In this document: positions 3,431 through 27,005 of the stretch, in pieces
Layout of the letters: each line of letters begins with the position of its first letter
Position numbering within the stretch: position 1 is the stretch's first letter
Sequence record: OR204651.1
Source of the DNA: Escherichia phage pO103
Length of the DNA stretch: 39,837 bases
Strand: one strand, 5' to 3'
Program-made: the position numbers and the translations under genes
Notes under the pieces: model-generated
What the model saw: only the letters and a program-made list of their open reading frames with translations
Told to the model about the DNA's origin: nothing
Database searches by the model: none

Positions 3431-6082
3431 ATGACTAACGTAATCAATGCACCAAAGAATGACTTCTCTGACATCGCTAACGCAATCCAGCCTTACAACA
3501 TACTGGCTGACCATTACGGCGCACAGCTTGCAGCTACACAGCTTGAGTTGGAACATGAAGCGCACACCGAGGGCGAGAAGCGTTTCCTTAAGGCAATGGA
3601 GCGTCAAATCAAAGCGGGTGAGTTCGGTGACAACGCAGTGGCTAAACCTCTCCTGTCATCCCTCGCACCAAAGTTTATCGAGGCGTGGAACACTTGGTTC
3701 ACCGAAGTAGAATCTAAGCGTGGGAAACGTCCAGTGGCCTACAATCTGGTACAGAAGATTGCACCGGAAGCTGCCGCATTCATCACACTGAAAGTCACAC
3801 TGGCTTGTCTGACCAAAGAGGAATACACCAACCTACAATCGGTTGCAACTAAGATTGGTCGTAGCATTGAAGATGAGTTGCGTTTCGGACGCATTCGTGA
3901 CGAAGAAGCGAAGCACTTTAAGAATCACGTACAGGAAGCACTGAACAAGCGCGTTGGTATCGTCTACAAGAAAGCATTCATGCAAGCTGTAGAGGGCAAG
4001 ATGTTAGACGCTGGTCAACTGCAAACCAAGTGGACCACATGGACACCTGAAGAATCAATCCACGTTGGTGTACGTATGTTGGAACTGCTCATTGGGTCTA
4101 CCGGTCTCGTTGAGTTACACCGACCGTTTGCTGGTAACGTTGAGAAGGATGGCGAGTACATTCAATTAACCGAACAATATGTTGACCTTCTGTCTAAACG
4201 TGCTGGGGCACTGGCTGCAATCGCTCCGATGTACCAACCTTGCGTGGTCCCTCCGAAGCCTTGGACTTCTCCGGTTGGTGGTGGCTATTGGGCTGCTGGT
4301 CGAAAGCCTCTCTCTCTGGTTCGTACTGGTTCCAAGAAGGGACTTGAGCGTTACAACGATGTGTATATGCCTGAAGTTTACAAGGCGGTGAACATCGCAC
4401 AGAATACTCCTTGGAAGATTAACAAGAAGGTTCTGGCAGTGGTCAACGAGATTGTGAACTGGAAGCATTGCCCGGTTGAAGATGTTCCTGCTCTGGAACG
4501 TGGGGAACTCCCGGTCAAACCTGAAGACATCGACACGAACGAAGCGTCACTCAAAGCATGGAAGAAAGCGGCCTCCGCAATCTACCGCAAAGAGAAGGCT
4601 CGCGTGTCTCGCCGTATGAGCATGGAGTTCATGTTAGGTCAGGCCAATAAGTTCGCACAGTTTAAAGCTATCTGGTTCCCGATGAACATGGACTGGCGCG
4701 GTCGAGTGTATGCAGTCCCAATGTTTAACCCGCAAGGCAACGACATGACCAAAGGGCTGCTGACCTTGGCTAAAGGTAAACCGATTGGTGTCGATGGGTA
4801 CTACTGGCTGAAGATTCACGGTGCTAACACTGCTGGCGTGGACAAAGTGGACTTTGCAGAACGCATCAAGTTCATTGATGACAACCATGAGAACATCATG
4901 AGCGTTGCGGCTGACCCGATTGCTAACACTTGGTGGGCCGAGCAAGACTCTCCGTTCTGCTTCCTCGCGTTCTGCTTCGAGTATGCTGGAGTTCAACACC
5001 ACGGTATGAACTATAACTGCTCTCTTCCGCTGGCGTTTGATGGTAGCTGCTCCGGTATTCAGCACTTCTCCGCGATGCTTCGTGATGAAGTAGGTGGTCG
5101 TGCGGTTAACCTGCTACCAAGCAAGGAAGTCCAGGACATCTATCGTATTGTTGCCGAACGTGTGAACGAGATGCTCCGCGAAGCGGTAATCAACGGTACT
5201 GATAACGAAGTGGAGACCGTGACAAACAAGGACACTGGTGAAATCACTGAGAAGCTCAAGCTGGGAACGAAAGAGTTAGCTGGTCAGTGGCTGGCCTACG
5301 GTGTGACTCGCAAGGTCACTAAACGTTCTGTCATGACGTTGGCTTACGGTTCCAAAGAGTACGGCTTCCGCGACCAAGTTCTTGAGGATACCATTCAGCC
5401 AGCTATCGACGATGGCAAGGGATTGATGTTCACTCAACCGAACCAAGCTGCTGGCTATATGGCTAAACTGATTTGGGACGCTGTAACGGTGACTGTGGTC
5501 GCTGCGGTTGAAGCAATGAACTGGCTGAAGTCTGCCGCTAAACTACTGGCTGCTGAAGTCAAGGACAAGAAGACTAAAGAAGTTCTCCGCAAGCGCTGCG
5601 CGGTGCATTGGGTAACACCTGATGGCTTCCCTGTGTGGCAGGAGTATCGCAAGGCAGTACAGACTCGTTTGAACCTGATGTTCTTGGGTCAGATTCGTTT
5701 GCAGCCTACCGTGAACACCAATAAGGATAGCGGAATTGATGCACGTAAGCAGGAGTCAGGTATCGCACCTAACTTTGTTCACTCAATGGACGGTAGCCAT
5801 CTGCGAATGACTGTAGTGCGCTCCAATGAGGTCTACGGTGTGGAATCCTTCGCACTGATTCATGACTCATTTGGTACTATCCCTGCTGACGCTGGCAACC
5901 TGTTTAAAGCAGTGCGTGAAACGATGGTCAACACTTACGAAGAAAACGATGTACTCGCAGACTTCTATGAGCAATTCGCTGATCAGTTACACGAATCACA
6001 GTTAGACAAGATGCCTGAGATGCCAGCTAAAGGCGCTCTGGACCTGCAAGAAATCCTCAAGTCAGACTTCGCGTTTGCCTAA
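3431..6082 (+). CDS. 1: Gene 1 single-subunit DNA-dependent RNA polymerase
   Basis: 883 aa, same length as T7 RNAP; extensive recalled identity; specificity loop has T7-type NTNKDS. Confidence 0.98.
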   Translation: MTNVINAPKNDFSDIANAIQPYNILADHYGAQLAATQLELEHEAHTEGEKRFLKAMERQIKAGEFGDNAVAKPLLSSLAPKFIEAWNTWFTEVESKRGKRPVAYNLVQKIAPEAAAFITLKVTLACLTKEEYTNLQSVATKIGRSIEDELRFGRIRDEEAKHFKNHVQEALNKRVGIVYKKAFMQAVEGKMLDAGQLQTKWTTWTPEESIHVGVRMLELLIGSTGLVELHRPFAGNVEKDGEYIQLTEQYVDLLSKRAGALAAIAPMYQPCVVPPKPWTSPVGGGYWAAGRKPLSLVRTGSKKGLERYNDVYMPEVYKAVNIAQNTPWKINKKVLAVVNEIVNWKHCPVEDVPALERGELPVKPEDIDTNEASLKAWKKAASAIYRKEKARVSRRMSMEFMLGQANKFAQFKAIWFPMNMDWRGRVYAVPMFNPQGNDMTKGLLTLAKGKPIGVDGYYWLKIHGANTAGVDKVDFAERIKFIDDNHENIMSVAADPIANTWWAEQDSPFCFLAFCFEYAGVQHHGMNYNCSLPLAFDGSCSGIQHFSAMLRDEVGGRAVNLLPSKEVQDIYRIVAERVNEMLREAVINGTDNEVETVTNKDTGEITEKLKLGTKELAGQWLAYGVTRKVTKRSVMTLAYGSKEYGFRDQVLEDTIQPAIDDGKGLMFTQPNQAAGYMAKLIWDAVTVTVVAAVEAMNWLKSAAKLLAAEVKDKKTKEVLRKRCAVHWVTPDGFPVWQEYRKAVQTRLNLMFLGQIRLQPTVNTNKDSGIDARKQESGIAPNFVHSMDGSHLRMTVVRSNEVYGVESFALIHDSFGTIPADAGNLFKAVRETMVNTYEENDVLADFYEQFADQLHESQLDKMPEMPAKGALDLQEILKSDFAFA

Positions 6083-6702: not shown

Positions 6703-7785
6703 ATGGAAATCAACTTTAAGACTTCGCCACATAAAGCTGTATCATTCGTTGAGTCTGCTGTTAATAAAGCTCTCGACAAAGCTGGCTACCTGATTGCTGA
6801 CATTAAATATGATGGCGTTCGTGGTAACATTGTAGTTGACCAGTTCGGTGTGGCTGCGTGGCTGTCACGCGTCAGCAAGACCATCCCGGCACTTGAGCAC
6901 CTAAATAGTGAATCACTAAGCTACCGCTGGGTGCAGCTTCTTAGCGATGACCGCTGTATCTTCCCTGATGGCTTCATGCTTGATGGTGAACTGATGGTCA
7001 AAGGAGTAGACTTCAACACAGGGTCTGGCTTACTGAGGACCAAGTGGCTCAAGCAGAAGAACTTCATGTACACTGATTGTTCTGAGTGGGGCAAGGACTG
7101 TACGGGAAAACCTTTCGAGCTAGACGTTAAGCGACTCAAAGTTATCCTCTATGGTGTCATGCCGTTTGACTCTATGGTCTCCGGTGAGACCTACGAAGTG
7201 ATGAACCTACTGATGCGCGAGCATGTTAAGGCTATGCTTCCTGTTCTGCGCGAGCACTTCCCTGAAATCGAATGGGACATCTCTGAGAGCTACGAAGTGT
7301 ACGATATGGTAGAACTGAATGCCCTCTATGAGAAAGCCCGTGCCGATGGTCATGAAGGTCTGGTAGTCAAAGACCCGCTGGGATTCTATATGCGCGGTAA
7401 GAAGTCCGGCTACTGGAAGATGAAGCCTGAGTGTGAAGCTGATGGTGTAATCGTGGGACTCAATTGGGGGACTAAAGGTCTCGCTAATGAAGGCAAAGTT
7501 ATTGGCTTCGAGGTTCTCTTGGAGTCCGGTCGCGTAGTTAATGCCAACAACATTAGCCAAGAGTTGATGGACGAGTTCACCGAGAAGGTAAAGGAGAAGA
7601 CACTAAGTGACTGCGGGTTCTTCAGTCCATACGGAATCGGAGACAATGATGCCTGTACGCGTAACCCCTTCGAGGGCTGGCAGTGCCAAGTGGCCTACAT
7701 GGAGGAAACTCCTGATGGTTCTCTGCGTCACCCATCGTTCGTTATGTTCCGAGGAACTGAGGATAACCCAAAGGAGAAAATGTAA
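6703..7785 (+). CDS. 1.3: Gene 1.3 ATP-dependent DNA ligase
   Basis: 360 aa; adenylation motif KYDGVR; matches T7 ligase length (359 aa). Confidence 0.95.
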   Translation: MEINFKTSPHKAVSFVESAVNKALDKAGYLIADIKYDGVRGNIVVDQFGVAAWLSRVSKTIPALEHLNSESLSYRWVQLLSDDRCIFPDGFMLDGELMVKGVDFNTGSGLLRTKWLKQKNFMYTDCSEWGKDCTGKPFELDVKRLKVILYGVMPFDSMVSGETYEVMNLLMREHVKAMLPVLREHFPEIEWDISESYEVYDMVELNALYEKARADGHEGLVVKDPLGFYMRGKKSGYWKMKPECEADGVIVGLNWGTKGLANEGKVIGFEVLLESGRVVNANNISQELMDEFTEKVKEKTLSDCGFFSPYGIGDNDACTRNPFEGWQCQVAYMEETPDGSLRHPSFVMFRGTEDNPKEKM

Positions 7786-7975: not shown

Positions 7976-8005
7976 GGTCAGTCCTTAAGGGGCTGGCCTT
8001 TTTGC
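7976..8005 (+). terminator. Early (host RNAP) rho-independent terminator TE-like: GGTCAG stem, CTGGCC, then TTTTT
   Basis: Hairpin followed by T-run just before the first class II promoter, as in T7. Confidence 0.55.
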
Positions 8006-8009
8006 GTTT

Positions 8010-8032
8010 CTATACGACTCACTATGGAGGAA
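8010..8032 (+). promoter_or_regulatory. Candidate phage promoter (phi1.5-like), variant: TATACGACTCACTAT-GGAGGA, one nt short before GG
   Basis: Core CGACTCACTAT present but -17 region and -1 deviate. Confidence 0.45.
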
Positions 8033-8039
8033 CAACCTC

Positions 8040-8120
8040 ATGCTATTTCTAATCGTCGCTATCATTGCTGCCACCTTTGCTCTCGTTATCATTGATGACA
8101 ACTGCTGGCCTGATTGCTAA
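8040..8120 (+). CDS. Small hydrophobic peptide, 26 aa (MLFLIVAIIAATFALVIIDDNCWPDC), gene 1.5 position
   Basis: GGAGG RBS 7 nt upstream; single predicted TM helix; below ORF-track cut-off. Confidence 0.35.
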   Translation: MLFLIVAIIAATFALVIIDDNCWPDC

Positions 8121-8147
8121 TATGACTCACATATGGAGGACACAACT

Positions 8148-10948: not shown

Positions 10949-11400
10949 GTAAGGTACAATTCAAACCACGCGCTGTGACAGAAGCAATCTTTGTCCACTG
11001 TAGCGCAACCAAAGCGTCCATGAATGTTGGGCTGCGTGAAATCCGTCAGTGGCATAAAGAACAAGGCTGGCTCGATGTAGGCTACCACTTCATTATTCGC
11101 CGTGATGGGACAATCGAAGAAGGCCGTCCGGTCGATGTCGTTGGGTCTCACGTTAAGGACTGGAACAGTAAGTCAGTCGGTGTGTGCCTCGTAGGTGGTA
11201 TCGACGATAAAGGTAAGTTCGAAGCTAACTTTACGCCAGCACAGATGCACTCTCTTAAAGAGAAACTTGCAGACCTGAAGGACATGTATCCTGATGCAGA
11301 AATTAAAGCTCATCATGACGTGGCACCTAAAGCCTGTCCGTCCTTCAACTTGAGCCGCTGGCTGAAGACTGGAGAACTGGTTACAAGCGATTGGGGTTAA
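10945..11400 (+). CDS. 3.5: Gene 3.5 lysozyme (N-acetylmuramoyl-L-alanine amidase) / RNAP inhibitor
   Basis: 151 aa; AIFVHCSATK...REIRQWHKEQGWLDVGYHFII matches T7 lysozyme. Confidence 0.95.
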   Translation: MSKVQFKPRAVTEAIFVHCSATKASMNVGLREIRQWHKEQGWLDVGYHFIIRRDGTIEEGRPVDVVGSHVKDWNSKSVGVCLVGGIDDKGKFEANFTPAQMHSLKEKLADLKDMYPDAEIKAHHDVAPKACPSFNLSRWLKTGELVTSDWG

Positions 11401-11420
11401 TAGAACTCACTATGGGAGGA
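11398..11420 (+). promoter_or_regulatory. Candidate phage promoter phi3.8-like (TAATAGAACTCACTAT-GGGAGGA, one nt short), followed by GGGAGGACCGAAAGGTTTCTCCC stem-loop
   Basis: Core ACTCACTAT plus GGGAGG; immediately after lysozyme stop. Confidence 0.5.
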
Positions 11421-14525: not shown

Positions 14526-14548
14526 CTATTCAACTCACTAATGGGAGA
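14526..14548 (+). promoter_or_regulatory. Candidate degenerate phage promoter (CTATTCAACTCACTAATGGGAGA)
   Basis: Core ACTCACTAATGGGAGA intact, upstream half divergent. Confidence 0.4.
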
Positions 14549-21620: not shown

Positions 21621-22532
21621 ATGGCTGGTGAATCTAACGCTGACGTATACGCATCTTTTGGTGTGAACTCTGCGGTTGTTGGTGGGTCTACTCCTACTGA
21701 CCACGAACAGGCTATGCTTGAACTTGATGTTGCTGCCCGTGATGGTGATGATGCAATCGAGTTAGTTAGCAACGATGACCCGTATGGCAATCCAGACCCA
21801 TTCGGTGAAGAAGATGAGAATCGTACTGAGATTCGTATCTCCACTGATGGTGAACCTGAAGTAACCGAAGAGGGTGAAATTGACTATGAAGGGACCGATG
21901 GAGAAGGCTCCGAAGAGTTTGAACCAGTTGGTGACGTTCCAGATGAACTGAACGAAGCCTCAAGTCAACTCGAAGATCACGAAGCAGGGTTCGAAGAGAT
22001 GGTCAATCAGGCTGCTGAACGTGGTCTGTCCGAAGAAACCATTGTCCGAATCCAACAGGAATACGGAGCGGACGGTCTGTCCGAAGAGTCCTATGAAGAA
22101 CTGGCTAAAGCTGGTTACTCTAAGTCCTTCGTTGACTCCTACATCCGTGGTCAGGAAGCTCTGGTAGAACAGTATGTTCAGTCCGTTATGGAGTACGCTG
22201 GCGGTGAAGCGCAGTTCCAAGCAATCTACAATCACCTCGAAGTGTCCAACCCGGATGCTGCTGAGTCTCTGATTAGTGCCTTGGAGAACCGTGACCTTTC
22301 CACTGTGAAGGCTATCGTGAATCTCGCTGGTGCAAGCCGTGCGAAGACTTTCGGTAAACCCGCTGCCCGTAGTATCTCTAAACGTGCTGTACCTGCTGCA
22401 CCTGTACGCACCAAACAGTCTGGCTTTGAGTCACAGGCTGAGATGATTGCTGCAATGTCCGACCCTCGCTATCGCCACGACAGTAAGTTCCGTGCGGAAG
22501 TTGAGCGCAAGATGATGTACAGTCAGTTCTGA
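21621..22532 (+). CDS. 9: Gene 9 scaffolding protein
   Basis: 303 aa from MAGESNADVYASFGVNSAV; acidic; AAGGAGA RBS. Confidence 0.95.
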   Translation: MAGESNADVYASFGVNSAVVGGSTPTDHEQAMLELDVAARDGDDAIELVSNDDPYGNPDPFGEEDENRTEIRISTDGEPEVTEEGEIDYEGTDGEGSEEFEPVGDVPDELNEASSQLEDHEAGFEEMVNQAAERGLSEETIVRIQQEYGADGLSEESYEELAKAGYSKSFVDSYIRGQEALVEQYVQSVMEYAGGEAQFQAIYNHLEVSNPDAAESLISALENRDLSTVKAIVNLAGASRAKTFGKPAARSISKRAVPAAPVRTKQSGFESQAEMIAAMSDPRYRHDSKFRAEVERKMMYSQF

Positions 22533-22535
22533 AAT

Positions 22536-22558
22536 TAATACGACTCACTATTGGGAGA
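22536..22558 (+). promoter_or_regulatory. Phage promoter phi10 (TAATACGACTCACTATTGGGAGA), with long structured leader before gene 10
   Basis: Consensus match; about 150-nt leader with stem-loops; strong RBS AAGGAGA. Confidence 0.9.
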
Positions 22559-22706
22559 GACTTAGACCCTGCGATGTCTGCGCTCGTAGACCTATCCAGA
22601 TGGGATGTATCTCCCTTTGAGTGATACACAATGAGAACCAACTCGTTTCAAGTAGTACCTCACACATTTAAAACTTTTATCATAAATCAACAGAAGGAGA
22701 TTCAAC

Positions 22707-23750
22707 ATGGCTAACATGACTGGTGGACAACAGATTGGTAAGGATCAAGGTAAAGGCATGAGCGCTGGCGATAAACTGGCTCTGTTCCTGAAGGTCTTCG
22801 GTGGTGAAGTTCTGACTGCATTTACCCGTACCTCCGTAACTATGAACAAACACCTCGTGCGTTCTATTCAGTCCGGTAAGTCCGCGCAGTTCCCTGTGCT
22901 GGGTCGTACCAAAGCTGCTTATCTGCAACCGGGTGAGAACCTCGATGACAAACGTAAAGACATGAAGCACACTGAGAAGACCATTAACATTGATGGTTTG
23001 CTGACTGCTGACGTTCTGATTTACGACATCGAAGACGCAATGAACCACTATGACGTGCGCTCTGAGTATACTGCTCAGTTGGGCGAGTCTCTGGCTCTGG
23101 CTGCTGATGGCGCGGTACTGGCTGAAATGGCTAAACTGTGTAACCTCCCGGCTGCATCCAATGAGAACATCGCCGGTCTTGGTACTGCAAGTGTACTGGA
23201 AGTAGGCACTGCGGCTGACCTACAAGGTGACCAAGTGAAGCTGGGTCAGGCAATCATTGCACAGTTGACTCTGGCTCGTGCTCGTCTGACTAAGAACTAC
23301 GTGCCGTCTGCTGACCGTACCTTCTACACCACTCCGGATAACTACTCCGCGATTCTGGCCGCTCTGATGCCTAACGCTGCCAACTATCAGGCGCTGATTG
23401 ACCCGTCTACTGGTTCTATCCGCAACGTCATGGGCTTTGAAGTAATCGAAGTTCCTCACCTGACTGCTGGTGGTGCTGGTGATGACCGTCCAGAAGAAGG
23501 CACAAGCCCGTCTGGTCAGAAACACGCATTCCCTGTGACTGCTACGGGTGACACTAAGGTTGCTCTGGATACCGTTGTTGGTCTGTTCTGCCACCGCTCT
23601 GCCGTTGGTACTGTGAAGCTGAAAGACATGGCGCTGGAACGTGCTCGTCGTGCTAACTATCAGGCTGACCAGATTATCGCTAAGTACGCTATGGGTCACG
23701 GTGGTCTGCGTCCAGAAGCAGTAGGTGCACTGGTTTTCAAAAAGGCTTAA
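22707..23750 (+). CDS. 10A: Gene 10A major capsid protein
   Basis: 347 aa; MANMTGGQQ.G start and extensive identity to T7 gp10A. Confidence 0.98.
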   Translation: MANMTGGQQIGKDQGKGMSAGDKLALFLKVFGGEVLTAFTRTSVTMNKHLVRSIQSGKSAQFPVLGRTKAAYLQPGENLDDKRKDMKHTEKTINIDGLLTADVLIYDIEDAMNHYDVRSEYTAQLGESLALAADGAVLAEMAKLCNLPAASNENIAGLGTASVLEVGTAADLQGDQVKLGQAIIAQLTLARARLTKNYVPSADRTFYTTPDNYSAILAALMPNAANYQALIDPSTGSIRNVMGFEVIEVPHLTAGGAGDDRPEEGTSPSGQKHAFPVTATGDTKVALDTVVGLFCHRSAVGTVKLKDMALERARRANYQADQIIAKYAMGHGGLRPEAVGALVFKKA

Positions 23751-23875
23751 CTTCTCGCAAACTCGTAGGGGACAATGAGTCCCTTACTGAAGTTGAGCAA
23801 GAGCTAACGCCACAGCAGAAAGCTGCTCGTACCCGTGCTGCTAACAAGGCGGCAAAACTAGCTGCTGAACAGTAA
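22707..23875 (+). CDS. 10B: Gene 10B minor capsid protein produced by programmed -1 frameshift near 23732-23741
   Basis: The -1 frame is open from the 10A C-terminus for about 46 codons to TAA at 23873-23875; slippery G GTT TTC AAA at the 10A end. Confidence 0.6.
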
Positions 23876-23886
23876 TAACTATATGA

Positions 23887-23928
23887 AACCCCTTGGGTGC
23901 CTTTGCGGGTGCTTGAGGGGTTTTTTTT
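23887..23928 (+). terminator. T-phi-like terminator for phage RNAP (CCCCTTGGGTGCCTTTGCGGGTGCTTGAGGGG + T8)
   Basis: Hairpin plus T-run closely resembling T7 T-phi, directly after gene 10. Confidence 0.85.
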
Positions 23929-23956
23929 CAACTCACTAATGGGAGGACATTTAACT

Positions 23957-24547
23957 ATGCGCTCATATGAAACAACGCTTGAGACAGGCGAAGAGTTGTC
24001 GGCTATCAACGACATCTTGGCCTCTATCGGTGAACCTCCAGTATCAACCCTTGAGGGAGATGCCAACGCAGACGTAGCGAACGCTCGACGTATCCTCAAT
24101 AAGATTAACCGTCAGATTCAATCTAAGGGCTGGACGTTCAACATTGAGGAAGGTCAACAGTTGCTACCTGATGTGTTCAACGGATTGATTCCCTACATGT
24201 CTGACTACTTGGCTGTGTTCTCGGATGGCGGTGCCACTGCCTATGTGAACCGTGGTGGTTACGTGTATGACCGGGACAATCGTACCGATGTCTTTAATGA
24301 ACCTATCACAGTGACAATTATCAAACTGCGAGAGTTCTACGAGATGCCTGAATGCTTCCGATACTGGATTGTCACCAAGGCTGCTCGACAGTTTAACAAC
24401 CGATTCTTTGGAGCACCTGAGATTGATGCTGTCTTAGCTGAAGAGGAACAGGAAGCCAAAATGCAGTGCACCGAATACGAGTTAGACTTCGGTAACTTCA
24501 ACATGCTTGACGGTGATGCCTTCACTGGTGGTCTGCTGTCTCGCTAA
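23957..24547 (+). CDS. 11: Gene 11 tail tubular protein A
   Basis: 196 aa from [39 protein letters not shown]; matches T7 gp11. Confidence 0.95.
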
Positions 24548-24572
24548 TCGTAATAACTTAAGGAGGTCTCTA

Positions 24573-26954
24573 ATGGCTCTTATTTCACAATCCGTCAAGA
24601 ACCTGAAAGGCGGTATCAGTCAACAGCCAGACATCTTAAGGTTCCCCGAGCAGGGCGCTGAACAGATTAATGGCTGGTCGTCTGAAACTGAAGGTCTCCA
24701 GAAGAGGCCACCTTTTGTATTCATCAAGACCCTTAGCGACGCTGGTGGTCTAGGGGCTAACCCTCTCGTTCACTTGATTAACCGAGATGAGCATGAGCGT
24801 TACTATGTGGTGTTCACTGGTGGTACTATCAGGGTATTCGACCTTGATGGTAAGGAGTATACGGTTACTGGTGATATGACCTACGTTGGTACTCCAAATC
24901 CACGAGATGACCTCCGTATGGTTACTGTGGCAGACTATACGTTCATCGTTAACCGGAATTGGACCGTTTCTGCTAACACCATTCCAGTATACCCCCTGAA
25001 CCCAAAGGGCGACTGTTTGATTAACATCCGTGGTGGCCAGTATGGGAGAACCTTCCAGATTGGCATTAATGGCGGTGTACATGCATCACTTACTATTGCG
25101 AATGGTAGCGCACCCGAACATGTAAACCAGACAGATGCTCAATGGATTGCTGAACAGTTGGCTGCTCAACTGAGAGCGAATCTTACGCAGCATGGGTGGG
25201 CAGTCGACGTTGGACAGGGCTACATTCACATCAAGAGCACTGGAGGAGGTCAGGTGGATAGTGTATGGACTAAGGATGGTTATGGGAACCAGTTGATGAA
25301 CGCTGTGATACATACTACACAGTCATTCTCTAAGTTACCACTTGAGGCTCCACATGGGTACACTGTGCAAATCGTTGGGGACACCTCTAAGACCTCTGAC
25401 GCATTCTATGTTCAGTACGATGCAGGACGTAAGGTCTGGAAGGAAGTCGTAGGGTGGAACGTACAGTCTGGTATCCATCGACCATCAATGCCACATGCGC
25501 TGATTCGTAAGCCGGATGGGTCGTTCTCTCTTGAGGTTCTTCCTTGGGAGGACCGTAAGTGTGGTGATATGGACACAAACCCGGACCCGTCACTTGTTGG
25601 TCAGAAGATTAACGATGTGTTCTTCTTCAGGAATAGATTAGGGTTCCTCGCTGGTGAGAACATTGTGATGTCCCGTACATCAAAGTATTTCAACCTGTTC
25701 CCGGCTTCGGTGGCTAACCTGTCAGATGATGACCCGATTGACGTAGCGGTGTCTCATAACAGAATCTCTCTACTGAAGTATGCGGTCCCATTCTCCGAAG
25801 AGTTACTCCTTTGGTCCGACCAAGCACAGTTCGTTCTGTCTGCTCAAGGCATCCTCTCACCGAAGACCGTAGAGCTAAACCTCACTACCGAGTTCGATGT
25901 GTCAGACCGAGCGAGACCTTATGGGATTGGTCGTGGTGTATACTTTGCGTCACCCCGCGCCTCATATACGTCACTAAACCGTTACTATGCGGTACAGGAT
26001 GTTAGCTCTGTTAAGTCTGCTGAGGATATGAGTGCGCACGTTCCGAGCTACATTCCGAATGGTGTATTCTCTATTCGTGGGTCAGGTACTGAGAACTTCG
26101 TGTCTGTGTTATCTGCTAATGCTCCTAGCAAGATATTCATCTACAAGTTCCTGTATCTAAACGAAGAGATTGCACAACAGTCATGGTCTCATTGGGAACT
26201 TGGTAGTAACGTAACGGTTCTGGCGTGCGACTCTATCGGGTCCACCATGTACCTTGTGTTACGCAACCAGTCCCACACTTGGATGTGCCGTGCTCACTTT
26301 ACGAAGAACAGCATTGACTTCCTTGAAGAACCTTATCGCATCTACATAGATAACAAGCTGGAGATAACAATTCCCGAAGGCTCATACGATGATGACACAT
26401 ATGAGACTGTTATCTATCCAAGCCACTTCTACGGAATGAAGAACTATCTAGGTAAGTTCTACATTGTGGCGATGGATGGTAAGGTAACAGGGTTTGATGA
26501 GCCTCATGGTGGATGGCCTGATGGTGAACCTCGCTTGACCCTTACTGGGAACCGAGAAGGTGAGACCGTCTACATTGGGCTGGCAATAGACTTCCGCTAC
26601 GTGTTCTCTAAGTTCCTCATCAAGAAGACCGCAGATGATGGGTCAACAGCTACAGAGGATATAGGCCGCTTACAGCTTCGTCGAGCGTGGGTCAACTATG
26701 AGGACTCAGGCGCATTCGTTGTGGAGGTAGAGAATACATCCAGACTGTTCAGCTATGACATGGCAGGTGCCCGTTTGGGTTCCAATGCGCTACGTGCTGG
26801 TGGACTTAACGTTGGTACAGGTCAGTTCCGCTTCCCGGTTGCTGGCAATGCACAGTTGAACGAGGTTCGTATCATCTCCGACCACACTACGCCACTAAAC
26901 GTTATTGGCTGTGGCTGGGAGGGCAACTACCTTCGTCGTACTTCTGGTATCTAA
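24573..26954 (+). CDS. 12: Gene 12 tail tubular protein B
   Basis: 793 aa from MALISQSVKNLKGGISQQPDIL; AAGGAGG RBS. Confidence 0.95.
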   Translation: MALISQSVKNLKGGISQQPDILRFPEQGAEQINGWSSETEGLQKRPPFVFIKTLSDAGGLGANPLVHLINRDEHERYYVVFTGGTIRVFDLDGKEYTVTGDMTYVGTPNPRDDLRMVTVADYTFIVNRNWTVSANTIPVYPLNPKGDCLINIRGGQYGRTFQIGINGGVHASLTIANGSAPEHVNQTDAQWIAEQLAAQLRANLTQHGWAVDVGQGYIHIKSTGGGQVDSVWTKDGYGNQLMNAVIHTTQSFSKLPLEAPHGYTVQIVGDTSKTSDAFYVQYDAGRKVWKEVVGWNVQSGIHRPSMPHALIRKPDGSFSLEVLPWEDRKCGDMDTNPDPSLVGQKINDVFFFRNRLGFLAGENIVMSRTSKYFNLFPASVANLSDDDPIDVAVSHNRISLLKYAVPFSEELLLWSDQAQFVLSAQGILSPKTVELNLTTEFDVSDRARPYGIGRGVYFASPRASYTSLNRYYAVQDVSSVKSAEDMSAHVPSYIPNGVFSIRGSGTENFVSVLSANAPSKIFIYKFLYLNEEIAQQSWSHWELGSNVTVLACDSIGSTMYLVLRNQSHTWMCRAHFTKNSIDFLEEPYRIYIDNKLEITIPEGSYDDDTYETVIYPSHFYGMKNYLGKFYIVAMDGKVTGFDEPHGGWPDGEPRLTLTGNREGETVYIGLAIDFRYVFSKFLIKKTADDGSTATEDIGRLQLRRAWVNYEDSGAFVVEVENTSRLFSYDMAGARLGSNALRAGGLNVGTGQFRFPVAGNAQLNEVRIISDHTTPLNVIGCGWEGNYLRRTSGI

Positions 26955-26982: not shown

Positions 26983-27005
26983 CAATACGACTCACTATTG
27001 GGAAG
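26983..27005 (+). promoter_or_regulatory. Phage promoter phi13 (CAATACGACTCACTATTGGGAAG)
   Basis: Consensus match. Confidence 0.8.

Follow-up and report, generated by a model that had tools for sequence, protein, structure and literature searches.

A phi11-like promoter element joined to the T-run of the T-phi terminator ahead of gene 11 in Escherichia phage pO103

What lies between the T-phi terminator and gene 11 of Escherichia phage pO103: a weak promoter for genes 11 and 12, or the remains of one? An earlier note on this DNA had posed the question in these terms. The window that we analysed is the whole of sequence record OR204651.1 (39,837 nucleotides), the complete genome of a T7-like phage in the genus Berlinvirus. 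Among its relatives, Escherichia phage D226 is about 91% identical over 25 kb, and P694 is 97% identical in the 1 kb around the T-phi/gene 11 junction. We believe, with a probability of roughly 0.55, that the element is a phi11 promoter with an eroded 5' part, which the phage RNA polymerase would still bind and use as a weak promoter for genes 11 and 12. The data show its anatomy, its homology with annotated phi11, the purifying selection on its core and the T7-type polymerase of the phage; binding, initiation, promoter strength and any physiological benefit are what we infer.

The layout is as the earlier note described it, with the T-run of T-phi leading straight into a phage-promoter-like element 5' of gene 11. 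The genes on either side are capsid gene 10A/10B and that of tail tubular protein A (Table 1). The element is intergenic: it follows the 10B stop (23878), precedes the ATG of gene 11, and lies on the + strand, co-oriented with these genes. Already open 5' of the 10A stop, the -1 frame continues to 23878, and 10B is an annotated frameshift product in Kvp1 and T3. A gene 10 frameshift signal, GGTTTTCAAAAAG, is present at 23732-23744, just 5' of the 10A stop; the -1 frame adds about 43 codons up to TAATAA, and this 10B tail ends 7 nt ahead of the T-phi hairpin. The next phage promoter 3' of gene 12 in our promoter list is at 26983. A simple scan found no host sigma-70 promoter at the site, and we found no tRNA genes in the window.

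T-phi itself is a strong prediction. The hairpin RNA folds with -25.1 kcal/mol (z = -5.2; none of 200 shuffles was as good), and the homologous sequence is annotated as a terminator in BA14, Kvp1 and T3. With its hairpin and U-run it matches the description of a class I terminator for T7-type RNA polymerase, so we treat it as a predicted terminator. In pO103 the stem ends in GAAACCCCTTGGGTGCCTTTGCGGGTGCTTGAGGGG and eight T follow. The T-run after T-phi has 6-10 T among relatives, and we saw no obvious correlation between its length and the presence of phi11, as 6-10 T occur in both classes. Even junctions that are otherwise nearly identical differ in this length (6 to 10 T), which may reflect true slippage or errors in sequencing a homopolymer. 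If it is slippage, it could drive erosion of the upstream part of the promoter. D226, S523 and JSS1 have GAGGGT or GAGGCG in place of GAGGGG at T-phi. A simple terminator scan of 22000-26000 did not report T-phi in spite of its highly significant fold; the stem is rich in G-U pairs. Since the scan missed T-phi, its negative results for T7-type terminators are not trustworthy.

Table 1. Coordinates of the features discussed, in positions of the pO103 window.
Feature	Position	Strand	Basis or remark
Phage single-subunit RNA polymerase, gene 1	3431..6082	+	76% identical to T7 RNAP
phi1.5-like site CACTATGGAGG	8010-8032		23.4 bits (ungapped PWM)
phi1.6-like site CACATATGGAGG	8118-8140		12.7 bits (ungapped PWM)
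phi3.8-like site CACTATGGGAGG	11398-11420		18.9 bits (ungapped PWM)
Reference promoter phi4.7, CTATTCAACTCACTAATGGGAGA, closest relative of the candidate	14526..14548	+	identical 23-mer annotated 'phi4.7' in BA14
Gene 10A	stop 23748-50, ends 23750	+	capsid gene 10A/10B flanks the site upstream
Tandem stops TAATAA, end of -1-frame gene 10B tail	23873..23878	+	upstream limit of the intergenic region
T-phi terminator hairpin (predicted)	23885..23924	+	18-bp stem with G-U pairs, 4-nt loop; G+C-rich part 23889-23920
T8 run, terminator U-tract	23921..23928	+	last five bases (23924-28) are promoter positions -17..-13
Candidate phi11-like promoter TTTTTCAACTCACTAATGGGAGG, -17..+6	23924..23946	+	weight matrix and alignment; predicted +1 G23941
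Invariant core ACTCACTAATGGGAGG, -10..+6	23931..23946	+	comparison of 17 Berlinvirus genomes
Shine-Dalgarno GGAGG of gene 11	23942..23946	+	within promoter +2..+6; 11 nt 5' of ATG
Gene 11, tail tubular protein A	23958..24547	+	ORF; homologous regions annotated gp11 / tail tubular protein A; first gene downstream
Gene 12, tail tubular protein B	24573..26954	+	ORF with internal start MALISQ...; second gene of the putative phi11 unit

The T8 run passes without a spacer into CAACTCACTAATGGGAGG (23929-23946), which is followed by ACATTTAACT and the gene 11 ATG. For the register of the element we relied on alignment with mapped T7 promoters. This predicts initiation at G23941 and moves it upstream of the transcript ends at 23943-23945 that had been proposed. 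The genome has 12 clear phage promoters with the consensus TAATACGACTCACTATTGGGAGA. The exact 18-mer CAACTCACTAATGGGAGG occurs once in the genome, and with up to three mismatches it is found at 8 sites against 0.02 expected, all of them the phage's own promoters. When we scored about 80,000 positions with a weight matrix trained on the 12 other pO103 promoters, the candidate reached 22.8 bits and ranked 14th genome-wide, while the best non-promoter background was 5.7 bits. The weakest accepted promoter, phi4.7, has 27.7 bits, or 20.0 bits when it is left out of the model.

The departures from consensus are concentrated upstream. At -17..-13 the candidate has TTTTT against TAATA, with 2 of 5 positions identical and 5 of 5 A/T, so by identity this segment does not pass as the usual AT-rich element. 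These five positions lie inside the T8 run, so that the full 23 bp are not separate from it, and the T-tract reaches upstream to -20. The T-tract had been thought to replace -17 to -12; the substitution is real, and it covers only -17..-13, as the consensus C is kept at -12 and is followed by A instead of G at -11. That A is the sole deviation at -12..-5, where CAACTCAC agrees with the phage's own consensus CGACTCAC at 7 of 8 positions. From -10 to +5 the sequence is consensus, and over the recognition positions -17..-11 as a whole 4 of 7 are off. The segment -4..+6, TAATGGGAGG, fits TAWTGGGAGR with G at +1, and at -4..+5 it is the same as in pO103 phi9 and phi4.7.

How unusual is such a promoter? 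The candidate matches pO103 phi4.7 at 20 of 23 positions, the differences being only at -17, -15 and +6, and the two share the 19 nt TTCAACTCACTAATGGGAG. To call the element truncated, as had been done, is correct in that its upstream part is shortened relative to phi11, and it is overstated for a site that is three positions from phi4.7 and in which the replaced segment is all A/T. The phi4.7 of pO103 is the positional homologue of the mapped T7 phi4.7, CTATTCGACTCACTATAGGAGAT. Like the candidate, the class II phi4.7 promoters of T7 and BA14 have T at -16 and -13 and carry a Shine-Dalgarno sequence inside +1..+6, with the ATG 8-10 nt later; A at -11 is found in BA14 and pO103. Unlike the candidate, they lie before gene 4.7, keep A at -15 and have no terminator fused to them. 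A at -11 is also natural in the mapped T7 promoters phiOL and phi3.8, as T at -16 and -13 is in T7 phi4.7, and an overlap of the promoter with the Shine-Dalgarno sequence of the next gene is the normal layout in T7 phi1.5, 1.6, 4.3 and 4.7. T at -15 is without precedent among the natural promoters of pO103 or T7. The CA-ACTCAC form may plausibly have arisen by ectopic conversion from phi4.7; phi4.7 is unchanged in relatives with other phi11 forms.

Three further promoter-like sites in the window have a -1/+1 region that is one base shorter, and by position they are analogues of T7 phi1.5, phi1.6 and phi3.8 (Table 1). One of them is part of a second terminator-to-promoter junction at 7985-8032, where a hairpin and T-run, GGGGCTGGCCTTTTTGCGTTT, directly precedes the phi1.5-like sequence CTATACGACTCACTATGGAGGAA (8010-8032). 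In Kvp1 the homologous pair is annotated, with the terminator at 8007-8034 and phi1.5 at 8041-8063.

We next compared the junction across relatives, with Berlinvirus genomes sampled by BLAST and metagenomes by pattern. The junction forms a graded series with at least six upstream forms ahead of the core ACTCACTAATGGGAGG. After the T-run, the sequence CGTACCACTAATAG precedes the core in Kvp1, P1338, CECAV_058, PhiV-1, CarlSpitteler and Carena (form a), CGTAATAG in JSS2, BP12A, SWJM-03 and LPST144 (form b), CTTAATG in JSS1 and ErnstBeyeler (form c), and the G/C-rich CGTGTG in PP74 (form d). In pO103, P694, SPLA4 and D226 only CA is left between the T-run and the core (form e), and two metagenome contigs have GCA (form f). 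The core is missing from BA14, S523, FE44, PC127, PZJ0206, RN5i1, Yep-phi and other Yersinia phages, which have CGCTACAA(CA)GGAGG or GCTTATGAGGAGG (form g). The three GenBank records that share the pO103 form all lack a phi11 annotation.

The candidate can be identified as phi11 because it lies between T-phi and gene 11 and is homologous to annotated phi11, by alignment with Kvp1 and by its layout with T3. The phi11 of Kluyvera phage Kvp1 (FJ194439), CTAATAGACTCACTAATGGGAGG, comes from the same genus and the same place, and has an identical 16-nt core that doubles as the gene 11 Shine-Dalgarno sequence, with alignable flanks. Upstream, Kvp1 still has CTAATAG (TAATA-G, which lacks one base of the consensus), with CGTACCA between it and the T-run, and the gap is 6 nt; in pO103, CTAATAG is gone and the T-run adjoins CA-ACTCAC. 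The Kvp1 promoter is a PHIRE prediction and was not mapped (Lingohr et al. 2008, PMC2579914). The comparison shows the pO103 element to be a shortened descendant or relative of the fuller phi11 that is annotated in Kvp1 and T3.

Several other observations bear on the history of this region. The type of the 10B tail (23805-23880) is that of JSS2 and BP12A in pO103 and P694, and that of Kvp1 and BA14 in SPLA4 and D226, and all four phages share one phi11 form and one gene 11 5' end despite their different 10B tails. Such mosaic tails with a common phi11 form suggest recombination breakpoints at the conserved terminator/promoter block. In T7-type contigs (L034, which is IMGVR_UViG_2974599467_000001, 7626-7650, and L031), T-phi is followed by GCTTTAATGGGAGG or GCTTTAGTGGGAGG. 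These resemble the T3 sequence (L135, 2885-2925) GCTTTAA-CCCTCACTAAC-AGGAGG with the promoter core deleted, a reciprocal kind of phi11 erosion, and they hint at an ancestral phi11 in Studiervirinae with several losses. A contig from another T7-like lineage, IMGVR_UViG_2700988933_000001 (551-600), has a T-phi-type hairpin whose T8 leads straight into CTCGCTATAGGAGA and then an ATG; a T-run may have come to adjoin the 3' half of a promoter independently here.

If the element were only a remnant, its core should vary like other unconstrained sequence. We looked at 17 core-bearing Berlinvirus genomes, which had been retrieved by BLAST without reference to the core; over its first 75 nt, gene 11 has 15 distinct haplotypes among them. 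None of the ten sites at -10..-1 and none of the six at +1..+6 is variable, against 16 of 25 third-codon positions in gene 11 (64%), which indicates selection on the core. Codon positions 1 and 2 of gene 11 vary at 4 of 50 sites, and the T-phi hairpin at 4 of 35. Under third-position drift, the chance of zero variable sites at -10..-1 would be about 0.36^10, or about 4e-5, which is a crude figure because the sequences are related. Directly 3' of the core, the 8-10 nt spacer between the Shine-Dalgarno sequence and the ATG has 9 versions in the 17 genomes, and upstream of -10 the sequence is free to vary (6 versions, including that of PP74). The Shine-Dalgarno sequence alone accounts for 6 of the 16 invariant bases. 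Point-mutated cores were not found among the sampled genomes, so the core is either perfect or absent, and what is conserved is precisely the portion of the promoter that serves the specificity loop, melting and initiation. This pattern fits a site that the polymerase still uses and not neutral decay.

Could the phage polymerase use a promoter with a T-tract in place of its upstream element? The gene 1 polymerase keeps R746, N748, R756, Q758 and the AT-rich-loop core KRGKRP, and the pO103 promoter consensus is that of T7 from -17 to -3. With the T7 base-contact residues and the same consensus over this range, T7 data are a fair proxy. In the part of S2 of Komura et al. (2018, PMC5937735) that we used, which reports a T7 promoter barcode assay, wild type has an activity of about 169. 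Single A>T changes there give 192 at -13, 116 at -15 and 115 at -16, and so keep 68-114% activity. The variant TTATAAAACTCACTATAGG (-16T, -12A, -11A) has 26, or 15%, TATTTAAACTCACTATAGC (-15T, -13T, -12A, -11A, +2C) has 9.0, or 5%, and GAATACAACTCACTATAGA has 7.9; in the same part, most variants with at least four substitutions have less than 1% activity. This part of the table has neither the exact pO103 upstream variant nor the double and triple T-substitutions nearest to it, and we used neighbouring variants. In a preprint (10.1101/619395), replacing TAATA with another AT-rich sequence had little effect and CGCGG nearly abolished promoter-dependent initiation; the experiments used hairpin oligonucleotides and bear on the AT-rich segment qualitatively only. 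From these values we estimate that the candidate might have a few percent to about 15% of the strength of a consensus promoter, in the weak class II range.

Putting this together, we propose that indels beside the terminator T-run removed the canonical TAATACG in pO103, P694, SPLA4 and D226, and that through this loss the T-tract came to fill -17..-13. The part read by the specificity loop (-10..-5) and the melting and initiation region (-4..+6) are intact, and ribosomes would bind at +2..+6 to translate gene 11. Most of the late transcription from phi6.5, phi9 and phi10 would stop in the T-run. The phage polymerase would bind the adjoining core weakly, its AT-rich recognition loop tolerating the all-T minor groove and A at -11 being tolerated as in phi4.7. 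Initiation at G23941 would then give a short-leader mRNA, 5'-GGGAGGACAUUUAACUAUG..., for genes 11 and 12 and up to the promoter at 26983, and this mRNA would add to what is made by read-through of T-phi. The same read-through is also an argument against a weak promoter, because the polymerases passing over it would occlude it. We found no mapped phi11 transcripts from T3, phiYeO3-12 or Berlinvirus in the literature. Many Berlinviruses and T7 do without phi11, so any benefit must be dispensable.

The invariant core tips us towards a retained weak function, one of the two options that had been offered for the element; the other, a non-functional phi11 relic with genes 11 and 12 transcribed by T-phi read-through only, as in T7, is less likely but a real possibility. 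In favour of a relic are the unconstrained upstream recognition segment, with six versions that include a G/C-rich one in PP74, and the absence of phi11 from T7 and many Berlinviruses. Most multiply substituted T7 promoters in the part of the Komura et al. data used here (PMC5937735) have less than 1% activity in vitro, which also fits. GGGAGG would be required as a Shine-Dalgarno sequence in any case, and the rest of the core might be kept by ribosome binding or standby, by hitch-hiking with the conserved terminator and gene 11 on either side of it, or by spreading through recombination. What this does not readily account for is the ten bases 5' of the Shine-Dalgarno sequence (ACTCACTAAT), which are invariant in 17 genomes that have 9 spacer versions and 64% third-codon variation. 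Neutral decay also predicts partly mutated cores, and none were found, and the conserved block is exactly the polymerase-contact and melting/initiation part. It is improbable that the block acts instead at the RNA level, with ACUCACUAAUGGGAGG in read-through transcripts signalling translation initiation or processing at gene 11, such as by a small hairpin that masks the Shine-Dalgarno sequence. The block does overlap that sequence, and CUCA pairs with UGGG in the fold of the full region. However, the fold 3' of the terminator is not significant (-5.6 kcal/mol, z = -1.5), no Rfam family matched at threshold (the only match, with E = 0.55, was spurious), every pO103 promoter inherently contains this partial palindrome, and relatives without phi11 translate gene 11 from a plain GGAGG.

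Two other explanations start from the geometry of the junction. In one, which we consider unlikely, the T-tract is not a mere leftover of erosion and is the working AT-rich upstream element of a functional phi11. The junction would then be a module of about 60 bp that stops most late transcription and restarts a metered fraction of it 13-20 bp further downstream, perhaps through recapture of released polymerase, and the invariant -10..+6 core would be a natural minimal T7-type promoter. The other, to which we give very little credit, has polymerase held or recaptured just past its release point without productive initiation, and so modulating T-phi efficiency as a roadblock or affecting polymerase recycling. 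Its support is geometric only: the release site in the T-run is 13-20 bp 5' of +1, and a terminator and a promoter are also paired at TE/phi1.5. The fuller phi11 forms are 4-14 nt further from the T-run and equally conserved, so the precise overlap is not the conserved feature. Chance resemblance was considered and dismissed as next to impossible, with 8 sites against 0.02 expected, a score 17 bits above background and homologous sites at the same place in relatives.

Should the eroded phi11 be active, genes 11 and 12 in part of Berlinvirus would not depend solely on T-phi read-through as in T7, and models of late gene dosage for T7-like phages would be affected. The site would also show, in a natural case, to what extent the upstream half of a T7-type promoter can degrade or become a T-tract and stay in use, with some value for the design of graded promoters of the T7 type and of compact terminator-promoter junctions. 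If it is inactive, it is a snapshot of promoter loss. Either way the general picture of T7-group transcription is unchanged, and the interest is modest and mainly for T7 transcription specialists and promoter engineers.

Among known systems, T7 has a homologous terminator and gene 11, with the Shine-Dalgarno sequence a few bases past the T-run as in pO103. Unlike pO103, its junction reads GCTGAAAGGAGG, with no promoter core, and Dunn and Studier reportedly concluded in 1983 that T7 genes 11 and 12 depend on T-phi read-through. T3 phi11 (NC_003298, annotated at 22395-22417) shares with pO103 the order of T-phi, a non-consensus promoter with +2..+6 as the Shine-Dalgarno sequence, and gene 11. 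In contrast to pO103, T3 belongs to another genus and its phi11 has T3 specificity (CCCTCACTAA), begins 4 nt 3' of T-phi with all 23 bp outside the T-run, and has an upstream part, CTTTAAC, that is close to the T3 consensus. A phage promoter directly 3' of T-phi was thus already known from T3 and Kvp1, as was a class II-like non-consensus promoter that carries the Shine-Dalgarno sequence of the next gene. What is specific to the pO103 case is the terminator T-run in place of the upstream element, together with a -10..+6 core that is invariant family-wide while the upstream part is free.
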